DNA of 63,826 bases, filler included, from Bradymonadales bacterium (GTDB lineage Bacteria > Bdellovibrionota > UBA2394), in the NCBI GenBank assembly GCA_007693605.1. It is 6 parts of 5 records of this genome, joined end to end, with 100 filler letters (N's around TTAATTAATTAA, not from the genome) between each part and the next. Parts side by side here need not be neighbours in the genome. Positions count along the whole stretch, not along the records: positions 2,143 to 23,371 come from REDG01000045.1; 5 more parts are not named here. One strand, given 5' to 3'. Shown piece by piece: positions 262 through 23,471 of the stretch. The notes below the pieces were generated by a model. It ran no database searches, was not told the DNA's origin, and saw only the letters and a list, made by a program, of their open reading frames with translations. The first letter of the stretch is position 1; every line of letters begins with the position of its first letter. Position numbers and translations under genes: made by a program.

Positions 262-264
262 ACA

Positions 265-928: not shown

Positions 929-956
929 TCGCACAAAAGCTGCGCTGGAGGACCAG

Positions 957-6167: not shown

Positions 6168-6217
6168 ATCTCTCTTCTTCTTCAGCAGAAATCACCGGAA
6201 GCACAAGGAGAAGTGAG

Positions 6218-7147
6218 ATGACAGGTCCCTCTCGAAAATCGCTAACGGATTCTCTTTTTGAGACGAATTATCAGAGCAAGGTCGCGGCCGAACTTTGGCT
6301 GAACATTGGCGGCAAAGAGTATCGTCTTGTCGGCAAGAAGATAAAAATTGGACGAGCCGTCGACAACGACATTGTGCTTGAGCACAAGAGCTGTTCTCGC
6401 TATCACGCCATGATTCGAGTCGAGAACAATCGAGTCATTCTGGAGGATTTAAAGAGCCGAAACGGCGTCAGAGTGAACGGCACGCCGATTGTTCGGGTAG
6501 AGCTTCAAGAAAACGCTGAGATTCAAGTGGGCGACTTGCCCGGGCTCTTTTATCAAAGACAGAAGGCCACTCAAAAGACCAATCGAGAGGTCACGGCAGC
6601 AGGAATTCTTTCGCCCGACATATCAGTCGCGGCCGGTCAACTTGAGAGACTGGGTCTTTCGGAACGATTTCAGGCTCTTCCAAAAGCCCTTCGTCTGTCG
6701 TTGATTGCACTCGTTCCTCTTTTCATGTTTGGAGTTTTGATTCTCTCTCAGAACAATTCATCGATGGGAACCCAGGCTGTAGAGTCATCCACCCCTCTCT
6801 TTTCTCTCACAGAATCCGATATTATACAGGCCGTTGTGCCCAGAACGGAGTTCGAGAACTGTCGAGTGGAAGAGGACCTCGGAAACTTCCGTCGCGCACG
6901 ATCTTGTTTGGAGGCCCTGCCTTTGACGGAAGAAGTGTTTATGACGCTTCGACGAGTGATCGAGCGGCAGCACAATCTTTCCATGCAGAGATACAAAGAA
7001 GGCGAGATGGCTCTGAAAAACAAATACTATGATTTGGCCATTCTGAAGCTTCAAGAAGTTCTCTTGATTGCCGATGAAAGCTCAGAGTTTCTGAGTAAGA
7101 TTCCCCGAATGATTGAAGAGGCGAAAGAAGGAAAGCGACTGCTGTGA
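6218..7147 (+). CDS. FHA-domain protein with one TM and a TPR-like C-terminus
   Basis: KIGRAVDND...SCSRYHA...DLKSRNGV; TM LSLIALVPLFMFGVLIL; C-terminal RYKEGEMALKNKYYDLAILKLQEVL. RBS AAGGAG. Confidence 0.82.
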   Translation: MTGPSRKSLTDSLFETNYQSKVAAELWLNIGGKEYRLVGKKIKIGRAVDNDIVLEHKSCSRYHAMIRVENNRVILEDLKSRNGVRVNGTPIVRVELQENAEIQVGDLPGLFYQRQKATQKTNREVTAAGILSPDISVAAGQLERLGLSERFQALPKALRLSLIALVPLFMFGVLILSQNNSSMGTQAVESSTPLFSLTESDIIQAVVPRTEFENCRVEEDLGNFRRARSCLEALPLTEEVFMTLRRVIERQHNLSMQRYKEGEMALKNKYYDLAILKLQEVLLIADESSEFLSKIPRMIEEAKEGKRLL

Positions 7148-9651
7148 GTGGTAAAGACTCATTTTTAGAACTCATCGGCTTAGACTCCGATGAGTTGGCA
7201 AAATCAGAGGCTTCGTCTTCGACGAAGACATCGTCTGTGACGGTGAAAGATATTGCTTTCGAGTCAGATCCCGATTCCGGCGAAGTGACGCAGCTCGATT
7301 CCTTTCAAGAAGACTCCTTTGCTGAGAGCCTTAGAAAGGAAGTCGAGGAGGCTGAGTTGAACCAAGACGAAGCCCCAGAATCGGACGACGAGGAAACAGT
7401 GAGTGAAGAGGCTTCTCAGTCGTTTAGTCAAGCCAGCTTCGTTGAAGATATTCTTGAAGAAAAGACGGAGCTCTTTTCTTCAGATGAAAAGCCCTTTGAG
7501 CCACAAGATCTGTATGCCGATGAGCTAGAGAATGCGAACACTCACTTTCGTTCTGGAAATTCTGAACCAAATCCCCAAGACGAAGAAGATTCTCGGACCG
7601 GTCTTCTGACAAAAGAAGACGCCTTGTTAGAGGGTTTGGAAGAGGCCGAGTATTCGAGAGCGACGGATTTGTTTGTTGTAAAGTCGAAGGCGGAGGGTGA
7701 GGAAGAAGCCCGTAAGACCGAGGCCATTTTGGGGGCGCTCGAAGAATTTGATGATCCTGCCGAAGACCCCCTAGAGGAGCTCTTAAGTGAAGAGTCGGCC
7801 TCTCAATCGACGAAGAGCATCTTGTATGAAGCGGAAGAAGCTCCACAGCAAAGAAGCTTTGTAGAGGGACGGGACTCGGTTTTTGAGCCCACGATTGAGC
7901 TGGAGGCAAGCTCTGGTTCTGCCAACGCAACGATCGCAAGCGCAAGATCAGAAGACACCGGTCGCCAGACCATGGCCTTTCAGTACCAGGACGAATCCGA
8001 AGCTTACGGAAGAATCATTGTCTTAGAAGGCGGGGCCAATCTCGACGAGTTAATTTTCCAAGAATTTCCTATCCGAGTCGGCAGGGGCTCTGAGAATGAT
8101 CTGATTTTAGAGGACGACAACTCAAGTCGATTTCATTGTGAGTTTCAAGATCGTGAGGGCGAGCTCTGGGTACAAGATCTTGGCAGCACCAACGGTCTCA
8201 AAGTGAACGGAGCTTTGACGACAGAGCACAAAATTGAGCACGGCGATTTGATTCAAATCGGAGAGGTTTTGATCGAATTTGTTGCGGCGGGCGAGTCTCC
8301 CCAAGGCGGGCGAGCGGCGACCCAGGAAGCACGAACTCAGATTGGAAAATCAAATCGAAGAGTTAAGAAGAAAAGGCTGAGATTGGTGATGACGGCCGGA
8401 GCCTTTTTGATTGCGGCGGGGCTTTTCGCTTGGTCTCAAATGGGGGGTTTCGATCTACAAAGAGTGACGACAGAGTATCTTGCGACGAATTTGAAAGAAG
8501 AGATGTTTTCACTTCAGAGAGAATTTCCGGAGGCTTCGTTTGAAAGTCTTCAGGCTGAAGATCTCAAAGTTCGGGCTTTAGAAAGAGCAAGGGCCCATCC
8601 GGTATTGAATCAGGTTGTGGATCGGCTCGAAACTTTTCCTGCTGATTATTTTGTTTTGTTTCTTTCTGACCCAGAGGCCTTAGAAGCCTTTGTGGCGACC
8701 GGAGGCGATTCAGGCGTTTTAATGGCTAGCCTTCGATCGCAACTGAACGGAGCCATTCATCGCCGAGAGAGACAGCAAGCGGGACGATTGTTTCAATTGT
8801 GGCGAATGATCGAGCCCGAGAATTCAGAGCGAGATCGGTTGCAGTCAGACTTTGAGGCTGAGTTTCGATTTGTCGAGACTCCAGAGGCTCCGGTGGTCAC
8901 TCAAGAAGAGAAAGATTTCGTATTGGGAATTCTGCGACAGCATCAAGAAACCTATGAGGAGCTTCTTCGCAATCAGCAGTTTGCGACGGCAGCGGATATG
9001 GCAGAAGATGTGATCTCTCGAATTCTTCAAGTGATTCGAGATTTTCCGCACTATGCCGACTTTGCTGAGCCTATGATTGCAAACTGGAAAGCAAAGTCGG
9101 CTCAAGCCAAGAGACAGCAAGAAGCCAAGGAGCAAGAGCGGCAAGAGTTTCAAGAGGTACTGGTTGAGGGCCGGTCTTCCCTTCGACAGGTTCGAGCATT
9201 GATGGATGAGGGGCGAGCCTATGAGGCCAAGCAAATGATCGAGAGTTTTCTATCTGAATTTGAAGAACACCCCGATCGATCTATTGCCGAAGATTATCGT
9301 CGACAAATTCAAGAGGTGATTGACCAGACATTCAGAGCCTTAAGGCGAGAAATTGAAGGGCATATTCGAACTCAAAACTTCGGTCTCGCCTGGGAGAGGG
9401 TTTATACTTATCTCGATCAACTACCAAAGCACTCGGGGGCTTTGGAGTTGCGGCAAGAGCTATTGAAGGTGACTTATAATCGGGCCAGACAGTTTTACAA
9501 TCAGGGCCGTGTCTTTGAGTTCGAGGCCGACGATTTAATTTCAGCCGAGCAATATTATAAGAGGACTTTAGAGGCAGCAGACCCTCGAGGGGAACTCGCC
9601 GCTCGGGCCCATCGCCGTTATAACGAGGTTTTGAGAAAGAAGCTGCAGTAA
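7144..9651 (+). CDS. FHA-domain protein with long acidic N-terminus, TM and helical/TPR-like periplasmic domain
   Basis: VGRGSEND...SSRFHC...DLGSTNG; TM after KKKRLR; GTGA overlap with the upstream gene. Confidence 0.82.
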   Translation: MSGKDSFLELIGLDSDELAKSEASSSTKTSSVTVKDIAFESDPDSGEVTQLDSFQEDSFAESLRKEVEEAELNQDEAPESDDEETVSEEASQSFSQASFVEDILEEKTELFSSDEKPFEPQDLYADELENANTHFRSGNSEPNPQDEEDSRTGLLTKEDALLEGLEEAEYSRATDLFVVKSKAEGEEEARKTEAILGALEEFDDPAEDPLEELLSEESASQSTKSILYEAEEAPQQRSFVEGRDSVFEPTIELEASSGSANATIASARSEDTGRQTMAFQYQDESEAYGRIIVLEGGANLDELIFQEFPIRVGRGSENDLILEDDNSSRFHCEFQDREGELWVQDLGSTNGLKVNGALTTEHKIEHGDLIQIGEVLIEFVAAGESPQGGRAATQEARTQIGKSNRRVKKKRLRLVMTAGAFLIAAGLFAWSQMGGFDLQRVTTEYLATNLKEEMFSLQREFPEASFESLQAEDLKVRALERARAHPVLNQVVDRLETFPADYFVLFLSDPEALEAFVATGGDSGVLMASLRSQLNGAIHRRERQQAGRLFQLWRMIEPENSERDRLQSDFEAEFRFVETPEAPVVTQEEKDFVLGILRQHQETYEELLRNQQFATAADMAEDVISRILQVIRDFPHYADFAEPMIANWKAKSAQAKRQQEAKEQERQEFQEVLVEGRSSLRQVRALMDEGRAYEAKQMIESFLSEFEEHPDRSIAEDYRRQIQEVIDQTFRALRREIEGHIRTQNFGLAWERVYTYLDQLPKHSGALELRQELLKVTYNRARQFYNQGRVFEFEADDLISAEQYYKRTLEAADPRGELAARAHRRYNEVLRKKLQ

Positions 9652-9799: not shown

Positions 9800-10057
9800 G
9801 AATCGAGAGTTTGGAGACAAGCCGCTCAAGCCGAGAGGAATGCGAGCGTTCCGGGATCGCGCTAGTCTGGCACTTTCGTCTCCCGACCCCAACCTGCTAT
9901 GCAATTTGTTTCGTAGTTTCAGAGGGGAAATACGCTGAAATCTGCACAGCAAGAGGCTTTGCGAGCCTGTGGAAAGAGGGCCCTCTTGCAAATAACTGAA
10001 AATACTAGGTTTTTTCAGCCCCTGTGGAAGACTATTCACAGCGCGGGCTGTCAAAGC

Positions 10058-10074
10058 GAGGCATCAAAATTGCA
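10058..10074 (+). promoter_or_regulatory. Putative sigma54 (-24/-12) promoter
   Basis: GAGGCATCAAAATTGCA gives GG-N10-GC with TTGCA. It is followed by RBS GGAGA and ATG 10105. Confidence 0.5.
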
Positions 10075-10104
10075 ACAAATTTTGTCATGTCTGGAGAAAA
10101 GCTC

Positions 10105-11610
10105 ATGCGAAGGCGCAAAGACAGAATTCAGATCAGTGATTTGATGCCCAAGGCCTCTCTGCCCATATTGATGATGGCGACTTTGGTCTTGAGTGCTTGT
10201 GATCCGGAGGAGCAAGAATCTACTTTTGCTCAGGGGGAACTCACGCCCGGAAACTCTAGTGTCGAGACTCAGAGAAGGCAAGCAGACATTGTTCGCGGGC
10301 TTGAAGACAACCGAGCGGGTCATCGTCTACAGGAAATTGCAGCAACGGGAGAGCAGGATCGAATGCGAGCGGAAATTGCACGCGATCAAGCGGTCGCAAA
10401 GGCAGAAATTAGAGGCGATGCGGATAGACATGTCTCCGACAATGATCGACTGGCACGAGAGAGTACGGCGAAAACGGCGGCGGATGCGCGCAAAAAAGAG
10501 GCAATATACCATTCACTCGCTGGTGGTGCTGAGGCGGTCCTTGGGGTCGTCGCTGGTCATCTGGATGGTAACACCAGAAAAGAAATTGCTAGAATTCAGG
10601 CCACGGCTGGTGCAGAAGCCATGGCAAAGAGACAGGAAATCGCTGAGCTTGAGCAGGATATTCGTGACTTAGATGCCAACATCGACAAGCAAGAGGATCT
10701 AGAGAGAACGGTGGCACAACTTCGGCCTGGGATGGAGAAGGCTGACTATGACCGAGTTCTTGATCGGGCAAGCCAGTCAGGTCTCATTTCTTTGGAAGAT
10801 CGAGACGAATTGGAATCATGGCGAGGTTTGGATCCGGGAGCTTTTGAAAGCGCCAAGCGAGCCGCTAGTCAGGAGTTTACTCGTCGGATTCGTGAACGAC
10901 AGGCGCAAAGAGAAGGTCTTGTGCAAGCCTACGAGAAGCTGACTGGTAGGGATCTAAGAGAAAGGCAAAGCTTAGAAGATGGAATTCCAGTCTTTCCCCC
11001 TCCACAAGCGCCGGGTGATACCGAAAGTTTTGTACCCAGTGCTGAACAAAATCAAAGTCCACTTTGTCAACGGGCTGAAGGCCAAGCCGGATCTGTTGAT
11101 GAGGCTTGTCGGGAACTAAATAATAATTTTGAGAAGATGGCGAAGAACGCGAATACTTTAATCAAGAATAGTAAACTAGGCACTCCGCAGCAAAATTTTC
11201 CGAAGGCAAAAGGTGGGTTACTAGAAGCGCTTCAAACACAGAAAGAAGCACTTAAGAAAATGAATACAGATGATGATCCAGAGAAAATGAATACAGATGA
11301 TGATCCAGCCATGAATTCTCGGATTGCTGGGGCTATTGCCGCGATTAATCAAGAAATTAAAACGGTCCGCGCTATCGAAGCGCTTAAGGATTTTCAAAGT
11401 CACCTGGGTTCATCTGGTGAATACTACCAGAGTATTCTTTCTAGATATCAAAGTCAAGATGATGTTGTGGCCATCATTGAGGATAGGAATGGGGTTTCGA
11501 TGTATCAAGTGGCTGGAATATCGTCACCACATCCTGAGAATTATAGTATTGAAGGGATCTCTCCTGTTAACCCGAGCTCGTTTTACTGTCCTCTAGGAAG
11601 CAACTGCTAG
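10105..11610 (+). CDS. Orphan coiled-coil lipoprotein
   Basis: Basic N-terminus, hydrophobic stretch and lipobox LVLSA-C. Start moved from 10024 to ATG 10105 because of the RBS and promoter. Confidence 0.7.
   Translation: MRRRKDRIQISDLMPKASLPILMMATLVLSACDPEEQESTFAQGELTPGNSSVETQRRQADIVRGLEDNRAGHRLQEIAATGEQDRMRAEIARDQAVAKAEIRGDADRHVSDNDRLARESTAKTAADARKKEAIYHSLAGGAEAVLGVVAGHLDGNTRKEIARIQATAGAEAMAKRQEIAELEQDIRDLDANIDKQEDLERTVAQLRPGMEKADYDRVLDRASQSGLISLEDRDELESWRGLDPGAFESAKRAASQEFTRRIRERQAQREGLVQAYEKLTGRDLRERQSLEDGIPVFPPPQAPGDTESFVPSAEQNQSPLCQRAEGQAGSVDEACRELNNNFEKMAKNANTLIKNSKLGTPQQNFPKAKGGLLEALQTQKEALKKMNTDDDPEKMNTDDDPAMNSRIAGAIAAINQEIKTVRAIEALKDFQSHLGSSGEYYQSILSRYQSQDDVVAIIEDRNGVSMYQVAGISSPHPENYSIEGISPVNPSSFYCPLGSNC
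11255..11308 (+). repeat. Perfect in-frame 27-nt tandem duplication
   Basis: AGAAAATGAATACAGATGATGATCCAG x2, encoding KMNTDDDP(E/A). Confidence 0.95.
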
Positions 11611-11758: not shown

Positions 11759-11989
11759 ATGAAGAGTCTTCGAAATAGAGACATTCTGAAGCGAAACTCG
11801 AAGCGAGCACAGACCTTGATTGAATACAGCCTACTTATTCTTGTGCTGATTCTACCCTTGGCCTTTTCTCTTCGAGAGCTTCTTCAGGATTCTCAAGAAG
11901 ACTCTCCAGACAACTTGATCTACCAAGCCACCACCACGAGCTTTGGCGATCGAGAGCGATTTGGAACGGTGGGCCGACCCTACCCCTAA
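11759..11989 (+). CDS. flp: Flp-type (type IVb/c) pilin
   Basis: Basic leader, KRA|QTLIEY, then a hydrophobic helix; 76 aa. Confidence 0.8.
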   Translation: MKSLRNRDILKRNSKRAQTLIEYSLLILVLILPLAFSLRELLQDSQEDSPDNLIYQATTTSFGDRERFGTVGRPYP

Positions 11990-12037: not shown

Positions 12038-12256
12038 ATGAAACGAATCAACGGAATTCTTAATCGACTCAATCGAAGAAAAGGCCTGAAGGCTCAAACC
12101 GCCCTCGAGTACGCTCTCGTTGTGGGTGCTATTTCTTTGGTTCTCATGTTCGCCTGGAACCAAGTCGGCGATACGGTCCGAAACGCCATTATGGGCGATA
12201 TGCAAGACCGAATTGAACAAAACCTAACCAGAGGAAACGCAACAGTAGAGAGGTAA
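12038..12256 (+). CDS. flp: Flp-type pilin, probable major subunit
   Basis: LKA|QTALEYALVVGAISLVL; strong RBS AAGGAG; followed by two hairpins. Confidence 0.88.
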   Translation: MKRINGILNRLNRRKGLKAQTALEYALVVGAISLVLMFAWNQVGDTVRNAIMGDMQDRIEQNLTRGNATVER

Positions 12257-12312: not shown

Positions 12313-13044
12313 GTGAAAAGACGACTCCTTCGTCAGGCAAAGAGACGAAAGCCGCTTCGAGGCCAAACGGTGGTGGAGACGGCTTTCGTCTTTACTTTAA
12401 TGCTCTTTCTCGCGCTTGCCGCGGTGAATCTGGGCACGACCGCCCACACCAACTTTATTGCGAACTACGCCGGATTTATGGCCGCTCGAAGTTTTCAGGT
12501 TTATGGCGTCGGCACGGGCGCAGACTTTTTTGACGAGGCGGATTTTGGCCAACTTCTCGATTCAGAAGTGACGGCCACCACCATTCGAGTGGCAGAAGAT
12601 ATTTTTACCTGCTCCCTTCCCTGGGTGTCTCCGCCTGACAACGACATCATCAACCCCGGAGATGATTCTCAGACATTTTCAAGATGCCATGAAGGCAATC
12701 GGCGTTACGAAAACACTAACATTGATCGTCGCTTTCGAGTTCTTCGCTTTGATCAACAGCAAAGAACAGAGTTTGAAGAAGTGGCCAGCTCCTACCGAGA
12801 AGAAGATCGGGCTCCGCTTCGCTACGGGATTCTTAGACTAAGATACAAACGAAGCCTTTTGCTCAACCCCTTTGGAATTTTTGACGGAATGAGAAATATT
12901 GATGGCGAACAAGTTTTTGTAGACGACGAGTTTCGAACTCGAATGTGGCACAGTCTTCATGTACCACTTCTGTTGAACCCCGGACTTGACACCGGCGAGC
13001 TTCGACAGGCTCAAGGTCAAGACTCCACGGTGGAGGATCAATAG
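12313..13044 (+). CDS. TadE-like minor pilin
   Basis: LRG|QTVVETAFVFTLMLFL...ANYAGFMAARS. Confidence 0.78.
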   Translation: MKRRLLRQAKRRKPLRGQTVVETAFVFTLMLFLALAAVNLGTTAHTNFIANYAGFMAARSFQVYGVGTGADFFDEADFGQLLDSEVTATTIRVAEDIFTCSLPWVSPPDNDIINPGDDSQTFSRCHEGNRRYENTNIDRRFRVLRFDQQQRTEFEEVASSYREEDRAPLRYGILRLRYKRSLLLNPFGIFDGMRNIDGEQVFVDDEFRTRMWHSLHVPLLLNPGLDTGELRQAQGQDSTVEDQ

Positions 13045-13045
13045 A

Positions 13046-14311
13046 ATGAAGGCCTATCTTTTTCACACTAGACAAAGAGGCCAGCGAGCGGTGGCGATGG
13101 TTTTCTTCTTGCTCGTTTTTGGTTTGACCTTGAGTTTTACGATGGTCGTTTTTAATACGGGCCTTATTGTCCATCAGAAAATTCGGCTGCAAACAGCAAC
13201 CGACCTAGCGGCCTACGCGGGGGCTAGTGTTCAAGCTTCTTATCTTGGCAATGAAAGTTCTGGACAAGAATCTCTGACGGCCATCAACGATCGAATCGTG
13301 CGCCGTTATATTCGCTTGCTTGAAGAGATCAACGATCATCCCAATCGAGTGATTCCCGCTCCTCCCATTATTCCTGCGAGTCAGGCCGCTTGTATGGCCG
13401 CCTGTGCTGCGGCAAATCTCGCCGTGGCAAATCGGGCGCTATCCATCTATCGACGGGCCCTCTCTGATATCGATGAAGAACACATCCGCGTTCGCCGAAT
13501 GTTAGAGCAGCTTCCTTCAGCGATTCGAGAAGCCATGGAAACAACCGTGGCTTTAAATATTCCTGAACTCAGCTTAGAAGACGGCCCCTTTGGTGGTGCG
13601 ACCAACGACCTCACAGAAATCATCGACCAGCCCCTACAGAATTTTTCAGCAGATCCACGAAACATCAATCTCTCGTTTCACTCGGACAAGGCCTTCTATC
13701 TCGCCAATATCGTGGCGGGCGTTCCGCATCGCTTGGTGTATTTTGGTCCGAACTGCGCGAATATGAATCGAGGCCTCGATCGACCTCCCGTCTATTACTG
13801 TACCGTCAACGGCCAAGGCGGCCAGGGGACAGCAATGGGATTTCAGGCGGCTGTCTCTGCTTTGGCGCTTGCCATGAACGGGATTGGAAATTTGGGAAGT
13901 CTAGAATCCATCGCATCCCCCAACTCGAGAGCCATCAAGCTTCAGTTTATTGAAGACCCCCATCGCCCCAGCCCCTTTGTGGTGGCTGCGACGGAATGGT
14001 TTCCAAAAACCGGAGGCCTCATGAATCTCGAAAAAAGCTTTGGTGCGCGCGGCAAGTTGATTCCAGACCACACCCGACTAGGCGCAATTTCAGCAGCTGA
14101 ACCTTTTGGGGGCTATCTGGCCAATCAGCAGGTACTTCCATTTGGAGTGAGGCTTCAAGCGATTCGAAAACTTCTTCTCGACCCGAGAATGTTGGCCGCT
14201 CGCGAAGATTTTGGAGGTCTCTACGATTATATGGAATATGTCGGACCCAAAGATGAGCGAGGAGAGAGCATCGAGAGTGCTGAAGAAACGATTTTAAGAT
14301 TTCTTCACTAA
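13046..14311 (+). CDS. TadG-like (Tad domain) minor pilin
   Basis: QRG|QRAVAMVFFLLVFG...NTGLIVHQKIRLQTATDLAAYAGA is a Tad N-terminal signature. Start set at ATG 13046. Confidence 0.78.
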   Translation: MKAYLFHTRQRGQRAVAMVFFLLVFGLTLSFTMVVFNTGLIVHQKIRLQTATDLAAYAGASVQASYLGNESSGQESLTAINDRIVRRYIRLLEEINDHPNRVIPAPPIIPASQAACMAACAAANLAVANRALSIYRRALSDIDEEHIRVRRMLEQLPSAIREAMETTVALNIPELSLEDGPFGGATNDLTEIIDQPLQNFSADPRNINLSFHSDKAFYLANIVAGVPHRLVYFGPNCANMNRGLDRPPVYYCTVNGQGGQGTAMGFQAAVSALALAMNGIGNLGSLESIASPNSRAIKLQFIEDPHRPSPFVVAATEWFPKTGGLMNLEKSFGARGKLIPDHTRLGAISAAEPFGGYLANQQVLPFGVRLQAIRKLLLDPRMLAAREDFGGLYDYMEYVGPKDERGESIESAEETILRFLH

Positions 14312-14336: not shown

Positions 14337-17300
14337 GTGATGAGAGGAAAACTTAAAATTCTAAAACGAAGTTCGGCTCAGACGCTGATTGAGCTGGCTT
14401 TGGTGATTGTGGGTGTCACGGCTTTTCTGGGTTTCAATTTGATTCTCTGGGGGATTTTTGATGTCAGTCAAAAGCAGACCATGCTGACAAGAACCCAAGC
14501 CTTTATTGAACTTGGCAACTATTCCGACTACGGCTTTCGGGCACATGGCCTTGATGAGGTAGAGAACGAAGAGAGCCAGGTTCGATTTTTTCTAGGCGAG
14601 AACAACCCCGGCACGCGAGTTAATATTGATGATCTGACCGACTTTCAACAGGCGCTTGGTGGAGAGTTGAATCTGACGGGGGAGGGCGGAGGAAATGATC
14701 AAACATTCTGGAGGAACTACGGCTTTCCGCGCGCGGTGGTTCGAATGGGTCGGACGCTGTTCTTTTCGCCTCAAGTCGCCCCTCTAGAGTTTCAATTTAG
14801 TCTCTACGAAGAGTTGGTGATTGCACACAACCGGAAAATCAATTTTGACGAAGATATTGGGGATAACAGGCTGCCAAGAAATTTTGTCACCGGCAGTGTT
14901 GATTTTCAGCGCTGGCTAAGACATTCCAATCAAGACATTCCGGTAATTGAAGACGGCGGGATGATTGACAACCGAGATGTTGCACTTGTGAGCTTGCGAG
15001 AGATTGTTCGATCAGATCCTTCTTTGGCCGAAGAAGCCGATCGAGTGGCCTCTAGAGTGAATGCTTCGGATTTTCTCTTGAGTGGAGCGGCAGCAGCCAT
15101 TATCAATACGGCCCTCTCTTTGGCCTTAGAGTTTGGGATGAATGCCATTGGCAATGCAATTTCAGGTGCGGGCGGATCGGCTGCCGGTGGGGCAGCGGGC
15201 TTTCCGCCGGGGGGTGGCGGGCCGAGCGTGGGGGGCAATCAGTTTGGCTTTCCGGGCTTTAGTGCGCCGAACTTTGTAGATGCCGCGACTCTGCACAACT
15301 TAGGCCAAGGCTTTACATTCGCCTCTCAATTGATGAACACCGCCAACCTCGGTTTGGCCTTGGCCGGTCAGAACAATCGAAACATGATGATGGCCACCAA
15401 TATTGTCGGAGGCGTGGGTGGAGTTTTCTCAGGGCTCTCGCAACTACAGTCCTTTCAGACCGGAATGCTCGGCACACAGAGTGTCACCGCTGGCATGAAG
15501 TCCGATCTCTTTGGGGGCTTGAGTCGAATCACAGGCGGGGCGGGCAGTATCGTCTCGACCTTCGATCCCGATCTAGGAAGAGCCCTTGGCATTGGAGCTT
15601 CTGGCTTAGGCGTGGTGGCCGGAGGCTTCGGCATTCACGAAAATCTTTCAGGCCCTGCTCGTTACGATGCGCAGGGCAATCTTCTCAGCTATCGAGACGA
15701 GTCCGGCAATTTCGCCCAAGCCGGTCAATTTCGACTGACCTCTGACATCGGAAATTTGATCTCGAACACGGGTGGCCTGGTGCAGGGCATTGCTCCCAAC
15801 AGTGATATCGGATTGGGCTTGAGTACCGTGGGTGGAGCCGTCAGTTTGGTTGGCGGGGTGGGCGTCACGGCCTATCGGTTGGAGTCTGGAGCCTATGACG
15901 GAAAGGCCTTTGCCTTGATGTCTGATGTCGGAGGTCTCATCAGTTCGGCCAGCGGTGTGGGGGTTGGATTTTCTCAGTTAAGCGGAAATGAATCCATGGC
16001 CGAGAAATTTGGTTACGGCTTGATTGTCGGCAGTGCGGTGGGAATGGCTGGAGGCGCGGGTCAGCTCACCCAGAGTTTGGTGGCCGGAGAGTTTGAAGGT
16101 TTTGGTCAGACCGCTCTGGCTGTGGGTGGAATTGTTTCGAGTGTTTCTGGTCTTGGTGCGACCGTGGCCGCGGCCACCGGCCAAGACGAGTGGGCCACAA
16201 ACTTGGGTTATGCCTCTCTAGTGGGGGGCGGAATCTCGGCGGTGGGAGCGGTGAGTCTGATGGGAGAGTCCATTGGTTCTTGGATGCAAACTCAAGGTGA
16301 TAAGAGACAAGGCCGAGAAGACGCTCGCAGGTTTATTGGCGAGAATGGATCCGATCCAGACGCTCTCCTTTCAGCTCATTCACAAGCCCTTTCGCTTTCG
16401 TCTGAGAGATCGCCCTCTTACTTGAGTTCTTTTCGAGGAGAGATTCAAGCGAATCTGATTCAAAATCATTCCGATCTTCCGGCCGTTCAGGATCTTTCTC
16501 CGGCGGGCTCCAGTGCTCGTGAAGAGCGGCCCTGGAATGCGGATCGTTGGAACGAGCTTACTGGACAAGTCTCTACTTGGAACGAGGGACTTCAGACAGG
16601 CCTTCAAGCGGCGCTCTCTGGCCTTCCCAGCTCGGGCAATGCGAATCAGAATTCCAATCTCAGCTCAGAGGCTCTTCAGGCGCAAGCCCTTGAAACTCAA
16701 AGGCAGCTCGCAATCGCCACCCAGAATGGATATGGCAGTGTCGCCTGGCTTCAGCAGGCTCTACCACAAACTCGAAATCTTCCTGAGAATCATTCGTTGA
16801 GTTCTGATCAAGTTCGCACCTATCAAAGAAACTCAGAGACGATACAAGCAGCGGTCGAGCATCTGAATGAAAATATTGAGAGGGGTCGACCTTTAGATCC
16901 TCAGATTATCGCCATGGGTCGACGGGCGGCAGAAGAGAACGAGGCCCTCTTGGGCCGCAGTCAAAGAAGAACCTGGGAAGACTATCAGACACCCGTCGCT
17001 CAAGGAAGCCGACCCGCTTTCGATGCAAACTCCTCATTTCCATACAACCTAGTGCAATTGGAGAGGGGCTCTCGTTTAAACTTTCAGTTCGAAGTCGAGG
17101 CCCTATCTTTGATGCTTCATGCCGAGAGAGAACTGGTCGGAAAGCGAGTGGTCGCCAATGTGCAAGAGAGAAGAAATCTTCAGAATATCGGAAGGGATCG
17201 CGCGCAACGACTGGGGAAGTATCGGCAAAGTCTTGAAGAAATTGACGCGAGTTTTGAATCTCGACTCAAAGTTGCCGAGAAAGCCTGGCGAGATATGAGA

Positions 17301-17414
17301 TTCGTCTCCCCAAAAGACGCTCTACAACAAATCGATCGAACTCTGCAGCAGCAAGAGGAATCCTATCAAAGAACGATGTCAGCTCTCCGCTCTGTGGCAA
17401 GTTCAAGGCGCTAA
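14337..17414 (+). CDS. 1025-aa pilin-tagged protein with Gly-rich hydrophobic hairpin repeats and coiled-coil C-terminus
   Basis: KRSSA|QTLIELALVIVG prepilin-like N-terminus; G/A/S/V/L-rich central region at about 15080-16270. Confidence 0.7.
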   Translation: MMRGKLKILKRSSAQTLIELALVIVGVTAFLGFNLILWGIFDVSQKQTMLTRTQAFIELGNYSDYGFRAHGLDEVENEESQVRFFLGENNPGTRVNIDDLTDFQQALGGELNLTGEGGGNDQTFWRNYGFPRAVVRMGRTLFFSPQVAPLEFQFSLYEELVIAHNRKINFDEDIGDNRLPRNFVTGSVDFQRWLRHSNQDIPVIEDGGMIDNRDVALVSLREIVRSDPSLAEEADRVASRVNASDFLLSGAAAAIINTALSLALEFGMNAIGNAISGAGGSAAGGAAGFPPGGGGPSVGGNQFGFPGFSAPNFVDAATLHNLGQGFTFASQLMNTANLGLALAGQNNRNMMMATNIVGGVGGVFSGLSQLQSFQTGMLGTQSVTAGMKSDLFGGLSRITGGAGSIVSTFDPDLGRALGIGASGLGVVAGGFGIHENLSGPARYDAQGNLLSYRDESGNFAQAGQFRLTSDIGNLISNTGGLVQGIAPNSDIGLGLSTVGGAVSLVGGVGVTAYRLESGAYDGKAFALMSDVGGLISSASGVGVGFSQLSGNESMAEKFGYGLIVGSAVGMAGGAGQLTQSLVAGEFEGFGQTALAVGGIVSSVSGLGATVAAATGQDEWATNLGYASLVGGGISAVGAVSLMGESIGSWMQTQGDKRQGREDARRFIGENGSDPDALLSAHSQALSLSSERSPSYLSSFRGEIQANLIQNHSDLPAVQDLSPAGSSAREERPWNADRWNELTGQVSTWNEGLQTGLQAALSGLPSSGNANQNSNLSSEALQAQALETQRQLAIATQNGYGSVAWLQQALPQTRNLPENHSLSSDQVRTYQRNSETIQAAVEHLNENIERGRPLDPQIIAMGRRAAEENEALLGRSQRRTWEDYQTPVAQGSRPAFDANSSFPYNLVQLERGSRLNFQFEVEALSLMLHAERELVGKRVVANVQERRNLQNIGRDRAQRLGKYRQSLEEIDASFESRLKVAEKAWRDMRFVSPKDALQQIDRTLQQQEESYQRTMSALRSVASSRR

Positions 17415-17515: not shown

Positions 17516-18382
17516 ATGGAAAATCGTCGAGCGATTATATGGTCCGTTTCAGCCGCCATTGTGGCTGCCTTCGCCTATTACTTGGCGGTGAACAAAGCTG
17601 TGGATAACCGAATTGGTGATCTTGATCGAACGGTGAATGTTTTAGTCGCTCGAAGAGATATCCCTCGAGATGCAGAGATTGATCAAAGCATGTTAGAGCG
17701 CAGAGCCTTTCCGATCGCCTTTGCTCACGACGAAATGGCCAGGACTGAGAGAGAAGTCGTGGGCCAAGTCGCATTGGCCACCTTTCGAGCGGGAGAGCCA
17801 ATCTTTCGAAACAAGCTAGTGCCCGCTGATGAAGTGGCCATTAACAGAAGAATTCCAGAGGGGCATCGGGCGGTTTCAATCGGTATTCGCGATCCACAAG
17901 ATGTGATCGGTGTGGGCGGGCTTCTGAGACCAGGTCATTTTGTGGATATCTTGGTCACCATGTTCGTGAACACCCAAGAGATCGAATCAGGCGATCGATC
18001 AGCGCAAATCATCATTGACGAGGCCAGGCGCTTAAAGGCTGAAACTCGCACGATCTTTCAGAATGTTCGAATATTATCAGTGGGTAGAGATTTTCGATTG
18101 GAAACGGCGAATGTCAGTCGCGCTCAGGGCCCAGGCTTTCAGTCTTCGCAGCAAACCAATATCACGGTGGCTCTGCCGCCGGCAGATGTTCAGAAGTTGG
18201 TATTGGCTCAACAAGTGGGTCAGATCATGATCGCTCTTCGTCGATTCAACGAAACTGAAATTGTGGATCTCGATTTCTTGGATCCGTTTAGGGCCTTTGG
18301 AATTCAGTTGCCAGTCGTCTCGGGGCCGCCGCCCGCTTATCGAGAAATCAGGGGAGGACAAGTTGTTGCAGCACCATTCTAA
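17516..18382 (+). CDS. cpaB: Flp pilus assembly protein CpaB/RcpC
   Basis: VLVARRDIP (SAF domain)...IPEGHRAVSI...GVGGLLRPGHFVDILVT...FQNVRILSVG. Confidence 0.92.
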   Translation: MENRRAIIWSVSAAIVAAFAYYLAVNKAVDNRIGDLDRTVNVLVARRDIPRDAEIDQSMLERRAFPIAFAHDEMARTEREVVGQVALATFRAGEPIFRNKLVPADEVAINRRIPEGHRAVSIGIRDPQDVIGVGGLLRPGHFVDILVTMFVNTQEIESGDRSAQIIIDEARRLKAETRTIFQNVRILSVGRDFRLETANVSRAQGPGFQSSQQTNITVALPPADVQKLVLAQQVGQIMIALRRFNETEIVDLDFLDPFRAFGIQLPVVSGPPPAYREIRGGQVVAAPF

Positions 18383-19934
18383 AATTTGCCGAATTCTCAT
18401 TTGCGCCGGAAGTTTAATTCTTTTGGGGCCCGCTCTTCAGCAGCCTGCAAATGCCCAGACCGATGTGATTGTCGAAGATCGAAGGCCCGCCCGAGGCTCT
18501 CAGATTCGGCAGCGAGAGTTGTTGTTGGTTCGAGATGTGCCGCGCACTCTTGAGTTTGACTATGATATTGGAGAGATCGCCATCGGAAATCCACAGATTT
18601 CTTCAGTAGTCGTGGACCGACCAAGACGCCGAATGGTTTTGAGCCCTCTCACACCCGGAGAAACAGCTCTCTTGGTTTTTGACACCAGAGGAGTTCAAAG
18701 AGACGCGGTTCAACTGGTCGTGACATCAACCGATCTAGATCAGTTTATTCGAGACCTGGGCTTCACCTTTCGCGACATCGAAGGTCTGACTTCTCGGCGA
18801 GTCGGAAATCGAATTGTACTGGAAGGCGAGGTCTATCTTCAGTCCGATATGGAACGAATTCAAGAAGTCTTGAGAGGAAATGACTTTGTAGTGAATCTTG
18901 TTACTTTGTCTCAAGACACTCAAAGAATTCTGGCGAGAAGAATTCGTGACGAGATTAATATCTCGGGCGTTCAAGTCGACACGGTTCGAGATCGCATTGT
19001 TCTGAAAGGCGAAGTCTCATCAGATCAAGAAAAAGAAAGGGCCGAGCAGATTGCTCGAATCTATGTCAGTGGAGATCGGCTCGTGAATGTGATTGCGGTC
19101 AATCCCGACCGAAGATCGGCTCGACCCGCACGCCTCATTCAAGTCTCAGCCCATTTTGTAGAACTCAACAAATCCTTTCTTCGGTACTTCAATTTCTCTT
19201 GGACGCCCATCACCAGCGTTTCTGCAACGACGGCCTTTCCCAGAGGTTTGACAGCTTCTGGAAGAAGCTTTGATCTCTTTGCGGTGGTCACAGACTTTTT
19301 GCCCCGCCTCGATACGGCCAAAGCTCTGGGTGTTGCGAGGGTTTTTGAGAACCCCACGATTTCTGTGAAAAGTGGCGACGCCGCATCCATTCAGTCGGGG
19401 GGCTCTTTGATTTTGCCGATCACTTCGCCCAATTTGTCTAGTCCGGCATTTTCTGAGCCGATCAATATCGGGGTGACTCTTAATGTGACTCCGACTGCCG
19501 ATGAAAGGGATTTTGTCGATATGCAAGTGGGCGTGGAGGTCTCAAGTTTGGGTAGTTCACCCAGAGGGACGGCCGCAGGGGATGGGGTTCTTTTGAACAC
19601 CTCTTCCGTTTCAACCACTCACTATGTTCGAACCGGAGAGACGGTGGCCCTGGGTGGGGTGATGCGGTCGGCTTTCACCGATGTGAGAGATGCGCCCCCA
19701 AATGCTCCCTTTACTTCGGGTTTCAATCCGAGCGTGCAGCTAGAGAGTAGTGTAGGAAATTTGTTTCAAGTCTTTAAGAATCGATCGATCACTGCCGACC
19801 GGTCTATGTTTATTGTCTTTATCACTCCTGAAGTTTTGGTCTCTGCGAGAGAGGCTTCAAGAAGTCTAAGGGAGCAAATGAATTTACGAGGGGTGAGAGC
19901 TTTTGAGCTCGATGAGATAGACGAGTTGAATTAA
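18363..19934 (+). CDS. cpaC: Tad secretin CpaC/RcpA with pilus-formation N-domain and BON-like domains
   Basis: IAIGNPQI...GETALLVFD...IQVSAHFVELNK...ENPTISVKSGDAASIQSGG...VFITPEVL. TTG start follows GGAGGA. Confidence 0.88.
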   Translation: MLQHHSKICRILICAGSLILLGPALQQPANAQTDVIVEDRRPARGSQIRQRELLLVRDVPRTLEFDYDIGEIAIGNPQISSVVVDRPRRRMVLSPLTPGETALLVFDTRGVQRDAVQLVVTSTDLDQFIRDLGFTFRDIEGLTSRRVGNRIVLEGEVYLQSDMERIQEVLRGNDFVVNLVTLSQDTQRILARRIRDEINISGVQVDTVRDRIVLKGEVSSDQEKERAEQIARIYVSGDRLVNVIAVNPDRRSARPARLIQVSAHFVELNKSFLRYFNFSWTPITSVSATTAFPRGLTASGRSFDLFAVVTDFLPRLDTAKALGVARVFENPTISVKSGDAASIQSGGSLILPITSPNLSSPAFSEPINIGVTLNVTPTADERDFVDMQVGVEVSSLGSSPRGTAAGDGVLLNTSSVSTTHYVRTGETVALGGVMRSAFTDVRDAPPNAPFTSGFNPSVQLESSVGNLFQVFKNRSITADRSMFIVFITPEVLVSAREASRSLREQMNLRGVRAFELDEIDELN

Positions 19935-19936: not shown

Positions 19937-22342
19937 ATGGGTATTTTGATAGCAGTCACAGGCGGAAAAGACGGGGTGGGGAAAACCACCCTTTCTCTGC
20001 ATTTGGCCTACAGCTTACTGAAGAATGCGAAGCAGCGCACTTGTTTGATCGAGGCCGACCCATACAATTTCGGCGATCTCTCCGTTCTGTTGGCAAGCAA
20101 GCAGATCAAGAGCTTTACCGACTTTTGTTCTCAGGTAGGTCGAATGGACTCTCGCCTGGCTGCGAATTGGGCCGGGGCTCATCCCACAGGCTTAAGCCTT
20201 ATGTCGGCTGCCAACTTTCCGAAAGACTTTCAGAACCTTGAAGATGAGAATGTCATCAAGGCTCTTCAGCTGCTCAAGAGGGCATTCGATGTGGTGGTGA
20301 TTGATGCTGGTCGAGACATCAACCCTTTGAGTTTCAGGGTCTTTGAAAATTCTGATTTGATTTTCTTGGTGACCGACGCTGACATCATTTCAGCCAACCG
20401 GACTGGGGAGCTTCTGAAAAATCTTCGTTCTCTTCATTTCGGAAATGAATCTTTCCGAGTGATTATCAATCGATTTGAGCAGAAGTCTGTGGTGAACCCG
20501 AGCACACTGAAACAAAAGTTCAATCTAGATGCGAAGATTCTTTTGCCGACGGATTCGGCAGGGCTTCAGCAGAGTGTTTCAATGGCCAGGCCGCTTCATG
20601 CCATCAATCCGAAGTCTCCATATCTGATTGGCCTCGACCAGGCTCTTCGGGCCGTCCATCCCTTCTTGCAGGGAGGGTCTTCGGGGACGGTGGTGACGGG
20701 AAAGAATCAGTCCCTTGAGGTCTTGAATTCTCTTCTCCCGTTTCGGGCGGCGGGGGCCGGCGCGTCTTTAGAGGTTCCGGCAAGAGGTTCGATTCCCGAT
20801 CCCATCAAAGAGAGAAATCTCAGAATTCGAACCCGAGTGCACGAAAGACTTCTTGAGTTGGTCGATCTTCGAGAAATGGATCCTCTTGAGCTTGAGAGAG
20901 ATCCCAAAAAGAAGGAGGAGTTGAAGTCTAAAACCGTGCAGGCCATTCATCAGTTGCTAGAACAAGAGGCAAAAGATGTGTCGGATCGACAGGAGAGAGC
21001 CCTTCTTGCACAAGAGTTGGTAGATGAGGCTCTGGGCCTAGGCCCGATCGAGGCTCTTCTTCGCAGCGAGTCGGTTAGCGAGATCATGGTGAACGGCAAA
21101 GATATGATTTATGTCGAGCAGAACGGAAAGCTCACTCTGTCTGATCTTTATTTTACGGGCGACAAGCAGCTATTGGGTTGTATCGAGAGAATTCTGATGC
21201 CCATTGGAAGACGGGTGGACGAGAAAACTCCCCTGGCAGACGGTCGTTTAAGAGACGGTTCTCGTATCAATGTCATCATTCCTCCCCTAGCCCTTTCAGG
21301 GCCAACTTTGACCATTCGAAAGTTCTTCAAAGAAAAACTTCAAGTGGAGGATCTCGTTCGTTTTGGAAGCTTGACCGACGAGATGGGAGATTTTCTTCGG
21401 GCTGCCGTCGAGGCCAAGTTAAATGTTGTGGTTAGCGGGGGTACGGGTACTGGTAAGACGACTCTGTTGAATTTGGTCTCGGGCTTCATTCCAAACGACG
21501 AGAGAATTGTGACGGTAGAAGACGCGGCAGAACTTCAACTGCCTCAAGATCATGTCATTACCCTAGAGACGAAGCCCGCGAATTTGCAGGGCGAAGGCTC
21601 GATTAGCATACGAGATCTCGTGCGAAACTCGCTTCGAATGAGGCCCGATCGAATTGTGGTCGGAGAGTGTCGAGGTGGCGAAGCCTTGGATATGCTTCAA
21701 GCGATGAATACAGGGCACGACGGATCCTTAACCACCGTTCATGCGAACAATCCCAGAGATTGCTTGAGGCGACTCGAGACTCTGGTGATGATGGCAGGTT
21801 TTGATTTGCCGATGGTCGCGATTCGTGAACAGATTGCTTCGGCAGTGAATCTCATTGTTCAGCTTCGTCGGTATAGTGATGGGACTCGAAAAATCAGTCA
21901 TATCACTGAGGTCATGGGTCTGGAGGGCGAGACCATGGTGACTCAGCCCATTTTTGAGTTTAAGCAGACGGGCACCAACGAAAAAGGAAAGGTGATTGGA
22001 AACTTCCAGCCCTCTGGTTTGATTCCGAAGTTCGTCGAGTCTCTCAAGGCGAAGGGAATCTCTTTGCCGAAAGGGCTCTTTGGGGGAGGGGCTTTGCCCA
22101 ATCGATCTTCAGATCGATCAAGTTCTTCTGAAACCAAGCAGTTGAGCCAATCGGATTCGAAGTCCAAAACAGAGGCGGCCACTCCAGAAGCCCCCATGGC
22201 TCGAAAGCCTGTGGGTTCAAGTAAAGACGAAGCGAATCTCTCAAGGTCGAGCCCATCGAGAGGCTTTCGGCCCCCTGCACCCGTTAAGAAAAACCCAGCA
22301 CGAATTCCGACTCGAAATCCTCACGGGGGGAAGAAGCCGTGA
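19937..22342 (+). CDS. cpaF: Fused CpaE/TadZ (MinD-like) and CpaF/TadA ATPase
   Basis: N-terminal GGKDGVGKTT and FDVVVIDAG; C-terminal SGGTGTGKTT, LRMRPDRIVVGECRG and AMNTGHDG. Confidence 0.92.
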   Translation: MGILIAVTGGKDGVGKTTLSLHLAYSLLKNAKQRTCLIEADPYNFGDLSVLLASKQIKSFTDFCSQVGRMDSRLAANWAGAHPTGLSLMSAANFPKDFQNLEDENVIKALQLLKRAFDVVVIDAGRDINPLSFRVFENSDLIFLVTDADIISANRTGELLKNLRSLHFGNESFRVIINRFEQKSVVNPSTLKQKFNLDAKILLPTDSAGLQQSVSMARPLHAINPKSPYLIGLDQALRAVHPFLQGGSSGTVVTGKNQSLEVLNSLLPFRAAGAGASLEVPARGSIPDPIKERNLRIRTRVHERLLELVDLREMDPLELERDPKKKEELKSKTVQAIHQLLEQEAKDVSDRQERALLAQELVDEALGLGPIEALLRSESVSEIMVNGKDMIYVEQNGKLTLSDLYFTGDKQLLGCIERILMPIGRRVDEKTPLADGRLRDGSRINVIIPPLALSGPTLTIRKFFKEKLQVEDLVRFGSLTDEMGDFLRAAVEAKLNVVVSGGTGTGKTTLLNLVSGFIPNDERIVTVEDAAELQLPQDHVITLETKPANLQGEGSISIRDLVRNSLRMRPDRIVVGECRGGEALDMLQAMNTGHDGSLTTVHANNPRDCLRRLETLVMMAGFDLPMVAIREQIASAVNLIVQLRRYSDGTRKISHITEVMGLEGETMVTQPIFEFKQTGTNEKGKVIGNFQPSGLIPKFVESLKAKGISLPKGLFGGGALPNRSSDRSSSSETKQLSQSDSKSKTEAATPEAPMARKPVGSSKDEANLSRSSPSRGFRPPAPVKKNPARIPTRNPHGGKKP

Positions 22343-23232
22343 GTGTCGCGGGCTTTCAAAGCTTAGGTCTGATGTCTGTCGGCCTGAGTGTCGTTTTTAT
22401 ATTTGTATTTTGGTTCATTTACTCACGATATTCCGAGTGGGAGACGAAGGCGCGCGAGGGAATGTCTGACTACGCAGCCGAGCTCTACGATTTGTTTGAT
22501 CGAATGTTCATGCGCCAAAACTTGAATCGCTGTTACAGTTTGATCATCATTTCAACGGCGGTGGCGGGCTTTGTTGGATTTAGTATCGGCCTGAGTGTTT
22601 CTCTTTTTTTCGGAGTGATTGCTGCCGCCCTTGGAGGGATGCTGGGCTTTCGACTTCCTGGGCTGATTGTTAAGGCTATGTTTCAGAGGCGGCTTTCGAA
22701 ATTCAATCTTCAGTTGATTGATGCCTTAAATATGATGTCTAATGCGATTCGATCAGGACTTTCGTTTATGCAAGTGATTCAGATTCTGGAGGCGGAGTTG
22801 GATGACCCGGCCTCTCAGGAGTTTTCAATGGTTTTGAAAGAGAATCGAGTCGGGGTGAATTTGAACGACGCACTTTTGAATATGACGAATCGAGTGCCCT
22901 CTGAAGACCTTTTTATGATCATCAATTCGGTCGTGACGCTCTCTCAGCAAGGGGGAGATCTCTCGGAAGCATTTGATACGATTGCGCACACCATTCGAGA
23001 GCGGCAAAGAGTCGCCTCCAAAATTCGAACGATGGCTCAGGCTGGAATGACCCAAGCCACGATTTTGGGGATTCTTCCCTTTGTGATGATGGGGCTACTT
23101 TATTTTGTGCAACCCGACTCAATGGTTCTGCTTTTCACGACTCCCTTAGGTCTTGGGATGGTCATCGTGATGCTAACGCTGATTGGCCTAGGGGTCTTCT
23201 GGATGAAGAAAATTCTGACGATTGATGTCTAA
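22339..23232 (+). CDS. tadB: Tad pilus platform protein TadB
   Basis: FNLQLIDALNMMSNAIRSGLS...QQGGDLSEAFDTIAHTIRER...IRTMAQAG. Confidence 0.9.
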   Translation: MSVAGFQSLGLMSVGLSVVFIFVFWFIYSRYSEWETKAREGMSDYAAELYDLFDRMFMRQNLNRCYSLIIISTAVAGFVGFSIGLSVSLFFGVIAAALGGMLGFRLPGLIVKAMFQRRLSKFNLQLIDALNMMSNAIRSGLSFMQVIQILEAELDDPASQEFSMVLKENRVGVNLNDALLNMTNRVPSEDLFMIINSVVTLSQQGGDLSEAFDTIAHTIRERQRVASKIRTMAQAGMTQATILGILPFVMMGLLYFVQPDSMVLLFTTPLGLGMVIVMLTLIGLGVFWMKKILTIDV

Positions 23233-23371: not shown

Positions 23372-23471
23372 NNNNNNNNNNNNNNNNNNNNNNNNNNNNN
23401 NNNNNNNNNNNNNNNTTAATTAATTAANNNNNNNNNNNNNNNNNNNNNNNNNNNNNNNNNNNNNNNNNNNN
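23372..23471. other. Artificial contig spacer
   Basis: N-run/TTAATTAATTAA/N-run. Confidence 0.97.

Follow-up and report, generated by a model that had tools for sequence, protein, structure and literature searches.

A giant putative minor pilin with nearly uncharged hairpin repeats in a Tad operon of an uncultured predatory Bdellovibrionota bacterium

The giant pilin gene and its operon

The stretch of DNA analysed here (the window, 63,826 nt) is made up of contigs from the genome of a Bradymonadales bacterium of the phylum Bdellovibrionota (assembly GCA_007693605.1), and it carries a locus for a Tad pilus in which the gene directly before rcpC encodes an unusually large protein, here called the giant. 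This gene is an intact and conserved member of a Kil-like Tad (type IVc pilus) operon of an uncultured predatory Bdellovibrionota bacterium. A preliminary description made from the sequence alone had placed a giant open reading frame (ORF) at 14337..17414 on the + strand, and the frame is indeed uninterrupted, stop codon included. It encodes 1025 amino acids (aa) if GTG 14337 is used, and a start at ATG 14340 gives the 1024-aa version stored in protein databases. The gene begins 25 nt past the stop of the preceding gene, and all genes of the Tad locus share its + strand. The order FHA, ~550-aa protein, Flp, Flp, TadE, TadG-like, giant, RcpC, secretin, TadZA, TadB is the same in all eight loci examined from the taxonomic family to which the genome belongs (f1). 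The operon was present without differences in one DNA sequencing run, possibly that of the source sample, with no RNA run listed as containing it, and scans of the operon for promoters and terminators gave nothing above shuffled sequences. The end of its contig (23371) cuts the operon just after tadB. Because the N spacer at 23372-23471 (embedded ttaattaattaa) joins two contigs, C13 and C14, physical linkage to the giant ends at 23371, and genes past 23471 are unlinked to the Tad locus.

Only three relatives besides the giant itself came from a word-indexed search among 5.8 billion proteins, and HMMER, run in full over 1.84 billion representatives, gave 50 proteins at E <= 1e-3, 37 of them at E <= 1e-30 (the family members referred to below). 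Full-length proteins among the 37 have 798-1103 aa, and P0005 reaches 1,109 aa. Whole-length matches occurred in the window's genome and in 10 of 13 other f1 genomes (species representatives); outside f1 there was none in either 27 or 387 genomes of other families in the phylum. Two of the three f1 genomes that lacked a match have rcpC on contigs shorter than 2.5 kb, so that assembly gaps are likely in these two, and the third (93% complete) had no match to rcpC either. When the giant's N-terminal profile was compared with 401 genomes of the phylum, matches outside f1 nearly always covered only the first ~65 positions. The ORFs concerned were small (92-271 aa), and several lay immediately upstream of rcpC. 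The gene nearest upstream of rcpC in other families encodes 118-254 aa in 20 of 20 loci from 19 families and has a prepilin motif in 16 of them; among the seven nearest same-strand ORFs of at least 50 aa upstream of rcpC in these 20 loci, none was large and Gly-rich. Since a small pseudopilin occupies this slot elsewhere, the giant looks, by sequence comparison, like an f1-specific enlargement of the rcpC-proximal pseudopilin. A 796-aa frame in family f34 (G238:C148:5768-6118) matches positions 142-256 of the N-terminal profile (E = 0.0014) and is a possible distant relative outside f1.

The proposal that the giant is a pilin-tagged Tad protein is well supported by its cleavage motif, its conserved operon position and a predicted helix-plus-sheet module. 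The prepilin sites of the giant (SSA/QTLIEL, where the slash marks predicted cleavage), the two Flp pilins (KRA/QTLIEY and LKA/QTALEY) and TadE (LRG/QTVVET) are in register; they have Ala or Gly at -1 and fit the G/XXXXE(Y) rule that holds for Flp-type pilins. The giant's N-terminus also obeys the class III signal peptide rule of a short basic leader, Ala/Gly at -1 and Glu at +5. This motif is found in 35 of the 37 family members, and the remaining two are truncated at the N-terminus. Cleavage of the giant by the cell's prepilin peptidase is therefore likely as judged from the motif; the genome has one gene for an A24 prepilin peptidase, on another contig. Directly after the site lies the giant's sole transmembrane (TM)-grade segment, where TM-grade means a translocon-scale insertion energy (Hessa sum, in kcal/mol) below zero: residues 20-38 score -0.9, which is also the family median. 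The alpha-1 region contains the family's most conserved stretch, QKQTML.RTQAF.ELGN (71% identity). The globular part of ~200 aa claimed for the protein was likewise predicted by AlphaFold. In a model based on 37 sequences (model 2), helix 3-59 is followed by five strands (81-85, 110-112, 134-141, 150-156 and 159-163), with predicted local distance difference test (pLDDT) values, in ten-residue blocks, of 64-90 for residues 81-140 and 53-80 for residues 141-163. The mature pilin module (residues 15-245) has a net charge of -15.

Profile comparison by hhalign linked the giant's first 260 residues to the TadE profile of the neighbours (69.6% probability, E = 4.2e-5, residues 3-67). Neither Pfam TadE-like (PF07811) nor TadE/G-like (PF13400) matched the N-terminal 258 aa, even at E <= 10. 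No pilin appeared among the listed rows of the fold searches, in which the full 1025-aa query barely covered the pilin module and the C-terminus.

Table 1. Genes of the Tad locus and segments of the giant protein in the window.
Feature	Nucleotides	Residues	Strand	Remarks
tadC-like gene	3322-4272		+	upstream part of locus
FHA-domain gene	4620-6167		+	515 aa
FHA-domain gene	6218-7147		+	309 aa
FHA-domain gene	7144-9651		+	835 aa
528-aa protein gene	10024-11610		+	
Flp-type pilin gene	11759-11989		+	cleavage motif same as giant
Flp-type pilin gene	12038-12256		+	cleavage motif same as giant
TadE-like pseudopilin	12313-13044		+	243 aa; PF07811 E = 2e-4 and prepilin motif
TadG-like protein	13046-14311		+	421 aa from ATG; PF13400 N-terminus
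Giant, leader peptide	14337..14378	1-14	+	motif; Ala at -1 of predicted prepilin-peptidase site (A/QTLIE)
Giant, pilin alpha-1 helix	14379..14513	15-59	+	hydrophobic alpha-1N, Hessa -0.9
Giant, globular part of pilin module	14514..15071	60-245	+	five predicted strands plus helices
Giant, Gly/Ala/Pro linker	15072..15287	246-317	+	24% Gly, 2 charged residues
Giant, hairpin-repeat module	15288..16271	318-645	+	five helix-loop-helix units
Giant, U0		318-372		helix-loop-helix unit
Giant, U1		386-436		helix-loop-helix unit
Giant, polar insert U1/U2	15645..15731	437-465	+	YD-repeat-like hairpin YDAQGNLLSYRD
Giant, U2		466-512		helix-loop-helix unit
Giant, U3		526-580		helix-loop-helix unit
Giant, U4		590-645		helix-loop-helix unit
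Giant, C-terminal helical region	16272..17411	646-1025	+	24% charged, Gln/Asn-rich
rcpC	17516-18382		+	
secretin rcpA	18261-19934		+	
tadZ-tadA fusion	19937-22342		+	
tadB	22339-23232		+	

Elsewhere in the locus, the three FHA-domain genes stand in a row (4620-9651) between tadC and the pilin genes, and these proteins suggest phospho-threonine-dependent control of the Tad machine. The 528-aa protein (10024-11610) is charged and helical-looking. Close to its N-terminus stands a lipoprotein-like LVLSAC, and it contains KMNTDDDP duplicated in tandem; it matched no Pfam or NCBIfam family. A gene for 525-611 aa occupies the same place in five of eight related loci and was not seen there in the other three. 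The TadG-like ORF was listed from TTG 12986, which overlaps tadE; ATG 13046, two bases past the tadE stop, suits the homologues better. The TadZ-TadA fusion (801 aa, 19937-22342) unites a ParA/MinD-type TadZ domain with a TadA secretion ATPase and is kept in all eight related loci (761-799 aa). The Tad locus of Bdellovibrio bacteriovorus is reported to resemble that of the window in having an unusual TadZA fusion, FHA proteins nearby and no TadV gene within the locus (bioRxiv 10.64898/2026.07.08.737194); in that organism PilD is described as processing Flp1 (same source).

Hairpin repeats and the C-terminal region

Beyond the pilin module, the preliminary description had drawn a Gly/Pro linker, about five imperfect hairpin repeats at nt 15300-16265 (residues 322-643) and a Gln/Arg-rich coiled coil. 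The linker (Table 1) spans residues 246-317; its residues 246-264 are borderline hydrophobic (Hessa +1.4), and pLDDT is low at residues 259-309. When the hairpin units were compared as single sequences with shuffled controls, z was 6.6 for U2/U3, 9.2 for U3/U4 and 2.6 for U2/U4, and U0 and U1 were not significant. Profile-profile comparison gave probabilities of 85% for U0 and U1, 78% for U1 and U2 and 91% for U2 and U3 (controls <= 0.7%); U3 and U4 reached 89% with a 12-row alignment and only 2.4% with the 37-row alignment. The chained profile comparisons therefore support five units, in line with the preliminary description. Five units are present in 20 of 37 family members. The other 17 have four and lack U2 together with the polar insert that precedes it; the insert was aligned in ~39% of members and is confined to the five-hairpin subgroup. 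Its likeness to a YD repeat did not reach the RHS_repeat (PF05593) cut-off, as a single 16-residue stretch scored 13.4 bits against the 22 needed (E = 0.11).

The hairpin module is 21% Gly and poor in charged residues (8.9% over residues 321-645, or 29 of 328 over residues 318-645). It contains no Cys, and neither does the giant as a whole; TadE and the TadG-like protein have 2-6. Nine of the 37 members, all of them four-hairpin proteins (L025-L030; P0006, P0008, P0011, P0012, P0019, P0024), end in C-x4-C, unlike the window's giant and its closer relatives, which are cysteine-free.

The four or five homologous units, with Gly at every seventh residue, are followed by a variable, helical C-terminus. 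This region is the most variable of the family (7-10% identity), and its last 125 aa (19% identity, pLDDT 85-96) are better kept than the rest of it. The coiled-coil description holds in part: the last 380 aa are helical and charged, but the heptad signal is weak and a true coiled coil was not shown. A WXG100-like C-terminus was considered and dropped, as the matches (E = 0.018-0.17) stayed under the cut-off and lacked the WxG turn.

Effectors of contact-dependent inhibition (CDI) systems, or prePAAR effectors of the type VI secretion system (T6SS), offer an analogy for hairpins that translocate a C-terminal toxin, and the giant could by this comparison be a pilus-borne polymorphic toxin whose hairpins carry its C-terminus across the prey membrane. 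The order of the domains (anchor, hydrophobic helices, variable C-terminus) is reminiscent of such effectors, and conservation of the giant is lowest in its C-terminus. We nevertheless consider this highly improbable. The C-terminus is colinear across the family, with profile matches reaching the last residues in most members; it is all-helical and matches no toxin family; and no small immunity-like gene follows it, rcpC being the next gene in all eight loci.

The hairpins were also found apart from pilins. P0045, a 1,802-aa protein on a 15.7-kb metagenome contig, matched the family profile at E = 9e-11, and hhalign aligned it with the 37-row alignment over 141 columns across U1-U3 (94.5%, E = 7.8e-8). 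It is rich in Asn, Lys and Glu; at least three of its hairpin units are homologous to U1-U3, and a long, charged tail of helices comes after them. P0045 does not begin like a pilin, matched neither a Pfam nor a PHROG family, and had no relative in viral contigs. The hairpin module therefore exists outside pilins.

Three phage tape-measure proteins, identified through PF10145, PHROG tape-measure families and one NCBI name, also matched the family profile (E = 3e-6 to 4e-4), in alignments that span the Gly-rich hydrophobic helices and the helical stretch after them. One of 12 homologues gave a sub-threshold match to Tape_meas_lam_C (PF09718, E = 0.052). At the sequence level this is a weak resemblance and not membership. 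Like the giant, tape-measure proteins (PF10145) are long and helical, are carried by an extruded filament and, according to PMC5099701, are proposed to meet a target membrane; they differ in having true TM-grade segments, with Hessa sums of -1.3 to -1.7 compared to +1.4 or more in the giant. The best ESM Atlas score for residues 300-660 (0.78) was reached by an RTX N-terminal lead and also by a viral hypothetical protein, both under the reliability line. The RTX lead was rejected, as PF02382 had no match at E <= 10 on these residues. ESM Atlas returned no usable match for residues 646-1025.

Charge, hydrophobicity and predicted fold of the hairpin module

We next consider what the hairpin module may do. 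Its charge is as low as that of membrane proteins. One 300-aa window of the giant is 7.7% charged, and only 20 of the genome's 819 ORFs of at least 320 aa have a 300-aa window that is at most 10% charged. Nineteen of these 20 hold TM-grade segments, and the giant is the only exception in the genome. The family members each have 4-14 charge-free stretches of at least 17 aa (median 9). Beyond residue 200 their lowest Hessa sums have a median of +3.5 (range -0.1 to 6.2), as compared to -0.9 for the pilin helix, and 36 of 37 have no TM-grade segment after that helix. The combination of low charge with hydrophobicity below threshold is conserved in all 37. Thus, the composition of the module favours membrane activity, as does its weak likeness to the hydrophobic core of phage tape-measure proteins, and insertion into a membrane or tight adhesion to one is, tentatively, its most likely function.

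A comparable setting of hydrophobicity is found in secreted effectors. TM segments of effectors from secretion systems of types III and IV (T3SS and T4SS) are described as lying just under the threshold for inner-membrane targeting (Krampen et al., 2018, PMC6110835). These effectors share with the giant hydrophobic helices below the level that would retain them in the producer's inner membrane, so that export can precede insertion into a target (PMC6110835). They have few TM segments, compared to the 8-10 helices in the repeats of the giant. No homology links the two, the giant's route would be the pilin pathway through the secretin, and we infer its membrane insertion, as we do its location at the tip.

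The best-supported reading of the giant is a minor pilin of the modular type. In its full form, to which we assign a probability of about 40%, the protein is a modular Tad minor pilin of giant size that sits at the tip of the pilus, and its nearly uncharged hairpins would enter the prey envelope or attach to it tightly.

Several results weigh against this reading. Searches of Pfam, NCBIfam, PHROG and PDB sequences gave no significant match for the giant, and no pore-toxin family or fold was matched in the family-library, Foldseek and VIA wide searches. Glycine-zipper motifs ([GAS]xxxGxxxG or GxxxGxxx[GST]) were not enriched in 12 homologues (62 compared to 63.8 +/- 8.7 in shuffled sequences). 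The tape-measure matches may reflect composition. No PHROG tape-measure model matched the giant, PF10145 matched none of the 12 homologues scanned, and tblastn of residues 380-650 found no match in 50,697 phage records. Moreover, PMC5099701 describes as unsettled whether the hydrophobic regions of tape-measure proteins insert into membranes or bind chaperones. Two metatranscriptome runs belonging to the study that produced the DNA run contained no reads on 13.4 kb; because the presence of the organism in these runs was not demonstrated, this is no test of expression.

The structure predictions weigh on the same side. Model 1, built from 12 sequences, had a mean pLDDT of 49.1 and a predicted template modelling score (pTM) of 0.29; the corresponding values for model 2 were 66.7 and only 0.37, and U4 and the linkers were modelled poorly. 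U0-U3 were modelled as stacked hairpins (pLDDT 56-88), the nearest structural neighbours of which are soluble helical repeats of the TPR-like SRP68/NASP/LGN type (Z 8-10). Foldseek found nothing in the PDB at E <= 0.001 with either model, and its weak rows were generic helical or membrane bundles. The best VIA wide matches had Z 10.7 for model 1 and Z 9.8 for model 2 (root-mean-square deviation (rmsd) 3.3, 169 aligned, residues 304-549), both under the caution line of ~13 for helical repeats. Among the 50 listed rows for model 2 there was no alpha-pore-forming toxin (ClyA/AhlB or colicin-type); with the low-confidence model 1, AhlB stood at rank 26 with a meaningless alignment (Z 7.6, rmsd 33.7). 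The VIA wide matches to SRP68/TPR-like repeats mean that the model looks like a generic alpha-solenoid. The predicted hairpin structure thus lends no support to a pore-toxin fold and keeps alive, as a serious rival, a soluble tip stalk or adhesin, in which the hairpins would be a permanent rigid or elastic alpha-solenoid spacer and the C-terminus, kept at a distance from the filament, would bind a prey ligand with no insertion.

The spacing of glycines is a further point for a stalk. Gly-Gly spacing is enriched at lag 7 (z = +5.5) and not at the zipper spacing of 4 (z = -2.1), which suggests antiparallel helices packed closely through heptads of small residues, a packing that we take to be of the Alacoil type. 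Similarly, Hessa sums of +3.5 to +7 speak against spontaneous insertion of the translocon type, the variable part of the protein is the C-terminus, and ligand binding is usual for the known modular pilins and KilN tips described in PMC8179133 and PMC12075869. On the other side, a 300-aa window with so few charges is unlike soluble repeat proteins, since all 19 other such ORFs of the genome have TM-grade segments; the structural Z-scores do not reach the caution line; and the sequence neighbours outside the family include the hydrophobic cores of tape-measure proteins. We therefore regard a soluble stalk as somewhat unlikely. As for the preliminary description, these results give its "pore-forming" label no direct support, with no toxin match, no excess of zippers and hairpins stacked in a TPR-like manner. 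The "glycine zipper" itself gives way to a Gly at every seventh residue, its motifs being as frequent as composition predicts.

The N-terminus and the linker bear on another alternative, namely that the giant never leaves the envelope. TadG of other bacteria is reported to stay anchored in the inner membrane, and the giant could likewise be held there by its pilin-like helix and act as a periplasmic or membrane scaffold, an anchor or a length control of the Tad machine. Consistent with this, the conserved QKQTML.RTQAF.ELGNY weakly resembles QK.RLQ.A.DLAAY of the TadG-like protein (hhalign 11.7% probability, E = 0.0026), the gene lies directly before those for RcpC and RcpA, which span the envelope, the insertion energy of residues 246-264 is borderline for integration into a membrane, and the weak tape-measure likeness could hint at a ruler-like role. 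However, the cleavage motif of the giant is complete, including Glu at +5, like that of the true pilins beside it, and the TadG-like N-terminus has the G-Q without that Glu. In the hairpin region, loops and linkers are acidic or neutral (19 D+E compared to 10 K+R) and show no positive-inside pattern; 36 of 37 members have no TM-grade segment beyond the pilin helix; and pili have no lumen for a ruler. Retention in the envelope thus appears unlikely, and we return to the reading of a modular minor pilin at the tip.

A possible tip mechanism and its meaning

The modular architecture of the giant has precedents. Tips of predator Tad pili are described as composed of three minor pilins, the largest of which exposes a variable C-terminal domain, and structural analogues of such tips are noted in Bdellovibrio (Herrou et al., 2025, PMC12075869). 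For modular pilins, exposure at the tip is judged likely (Raynaud et al., 2021, PMC8179133). The giant may, by analogy, form the pilus tip together with TadE and the TadG-like protein. As described, pilins of the KilN/TadG type share with the giant a place beside two other minor pilins in a predator Kil-like Tad locus (FHA, secretin, Flp), as well as a pilin module with a cleavage site and a large variable C-terminal extension, and KilN's extension is proposed as the pilus extremity. The extension of the giant is set apart from that description by its ~780 aa of all-helical, Cys-free, uncharged hairpin repeats. PilB and PilC of Streptococcus sanguinis similarly have a small pilin module with a grafted functional module that is likely tip-exposed (PMC8179133). 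These pilins belong to the T4a type (IPR012902), and their adhesive domains, for example vWA or lectin, are known, whereas no Pfam, NCBIfam or PHROG signature covers the module of the giant. The largest modular pilin listed in PMC8179133 has 860 aa, compared to 1,109 aa for P0005 in the giant's family.

Bd0109, a large protein of the Tad/hit region in Bdellovibrio bacteriovorus, is described as carrying YD repeats and starting like a pilin (Capeness et al., 2013, PMC3818213). In the giant a single YD-like hairpin occurs, the sub-cut-off 16-residue stretch in its polar insert, and no homology of the two proteins was shown. Their positional equivalence was also considered and dropped, as the gene before rcpC encodes a 158-164-aa pseudopilin in two f8 (Bdellovibrio-like) loci.

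The statement in the preliminary description that no such pilin had been described is borne out in so far as we found no account of a hairpin-bearing pilin of this architecture in the literature searched, the supplements of PMC12075869 not included. It needs qualification in that predator Tad tips with variable C-terminal modules are already published. Modular minor pilins and the Tad tips of predators are thus known; apparently undescribed are the size, which reaches 1,109 aa, a hairpin-repeat module that is all-helical, Cys-free and uncharged, and the restriction to one family.

If the hairpins are membrane-active, the giant could work as follows. It would enter the inner membrane in the manner of a prepilin. 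Its later helices lie below the hydrophobicity for retention there and so would pass on into the periplasm. The giant would then prime the pilus together with TadE and the TadG-like protein and be carried out through the secretin, its extension forming the part of the tip that meets the prey. On contact, the variable C-terminus would engage the prey surface, and the hairpins, stored until then as a compact helical stack, would open and embed themselves in the prey outer membrane, where they would anchor the pilus for pulling or open the envelope. Such a type IV-filament "harpoon", with hairpins that ride folded through the secretin and unfurl in the prey outer membrane to anchor in it or breach it for Tad-driven attachment and invasion, is a speculative possibility that we hold a little less firmly than membrane activity as such. 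If true, it would be the first membrane-inserting module on any pilin and a mechanistic cousin of the supposed action of tape-measure proteins.

Predator Tad tips have been published as important and variable, and their physical action on the prey after contact has been left open. The extension of the giant looks built for lipid and not for ligand binding, and so it offers a concrete, testable mechanism for a tip. The giant also widens the variety of modular pilins and their span of sizes, and adds a new hairpin-repeat module, outside current domain libraries, that is common to at least one unrelated protein of 1,802 aa. In the biology of the phylum, these findings suggest that one Bdellovibrionota lineage has remodelled the set of minor pilins in a machine that is conserved in other respects.

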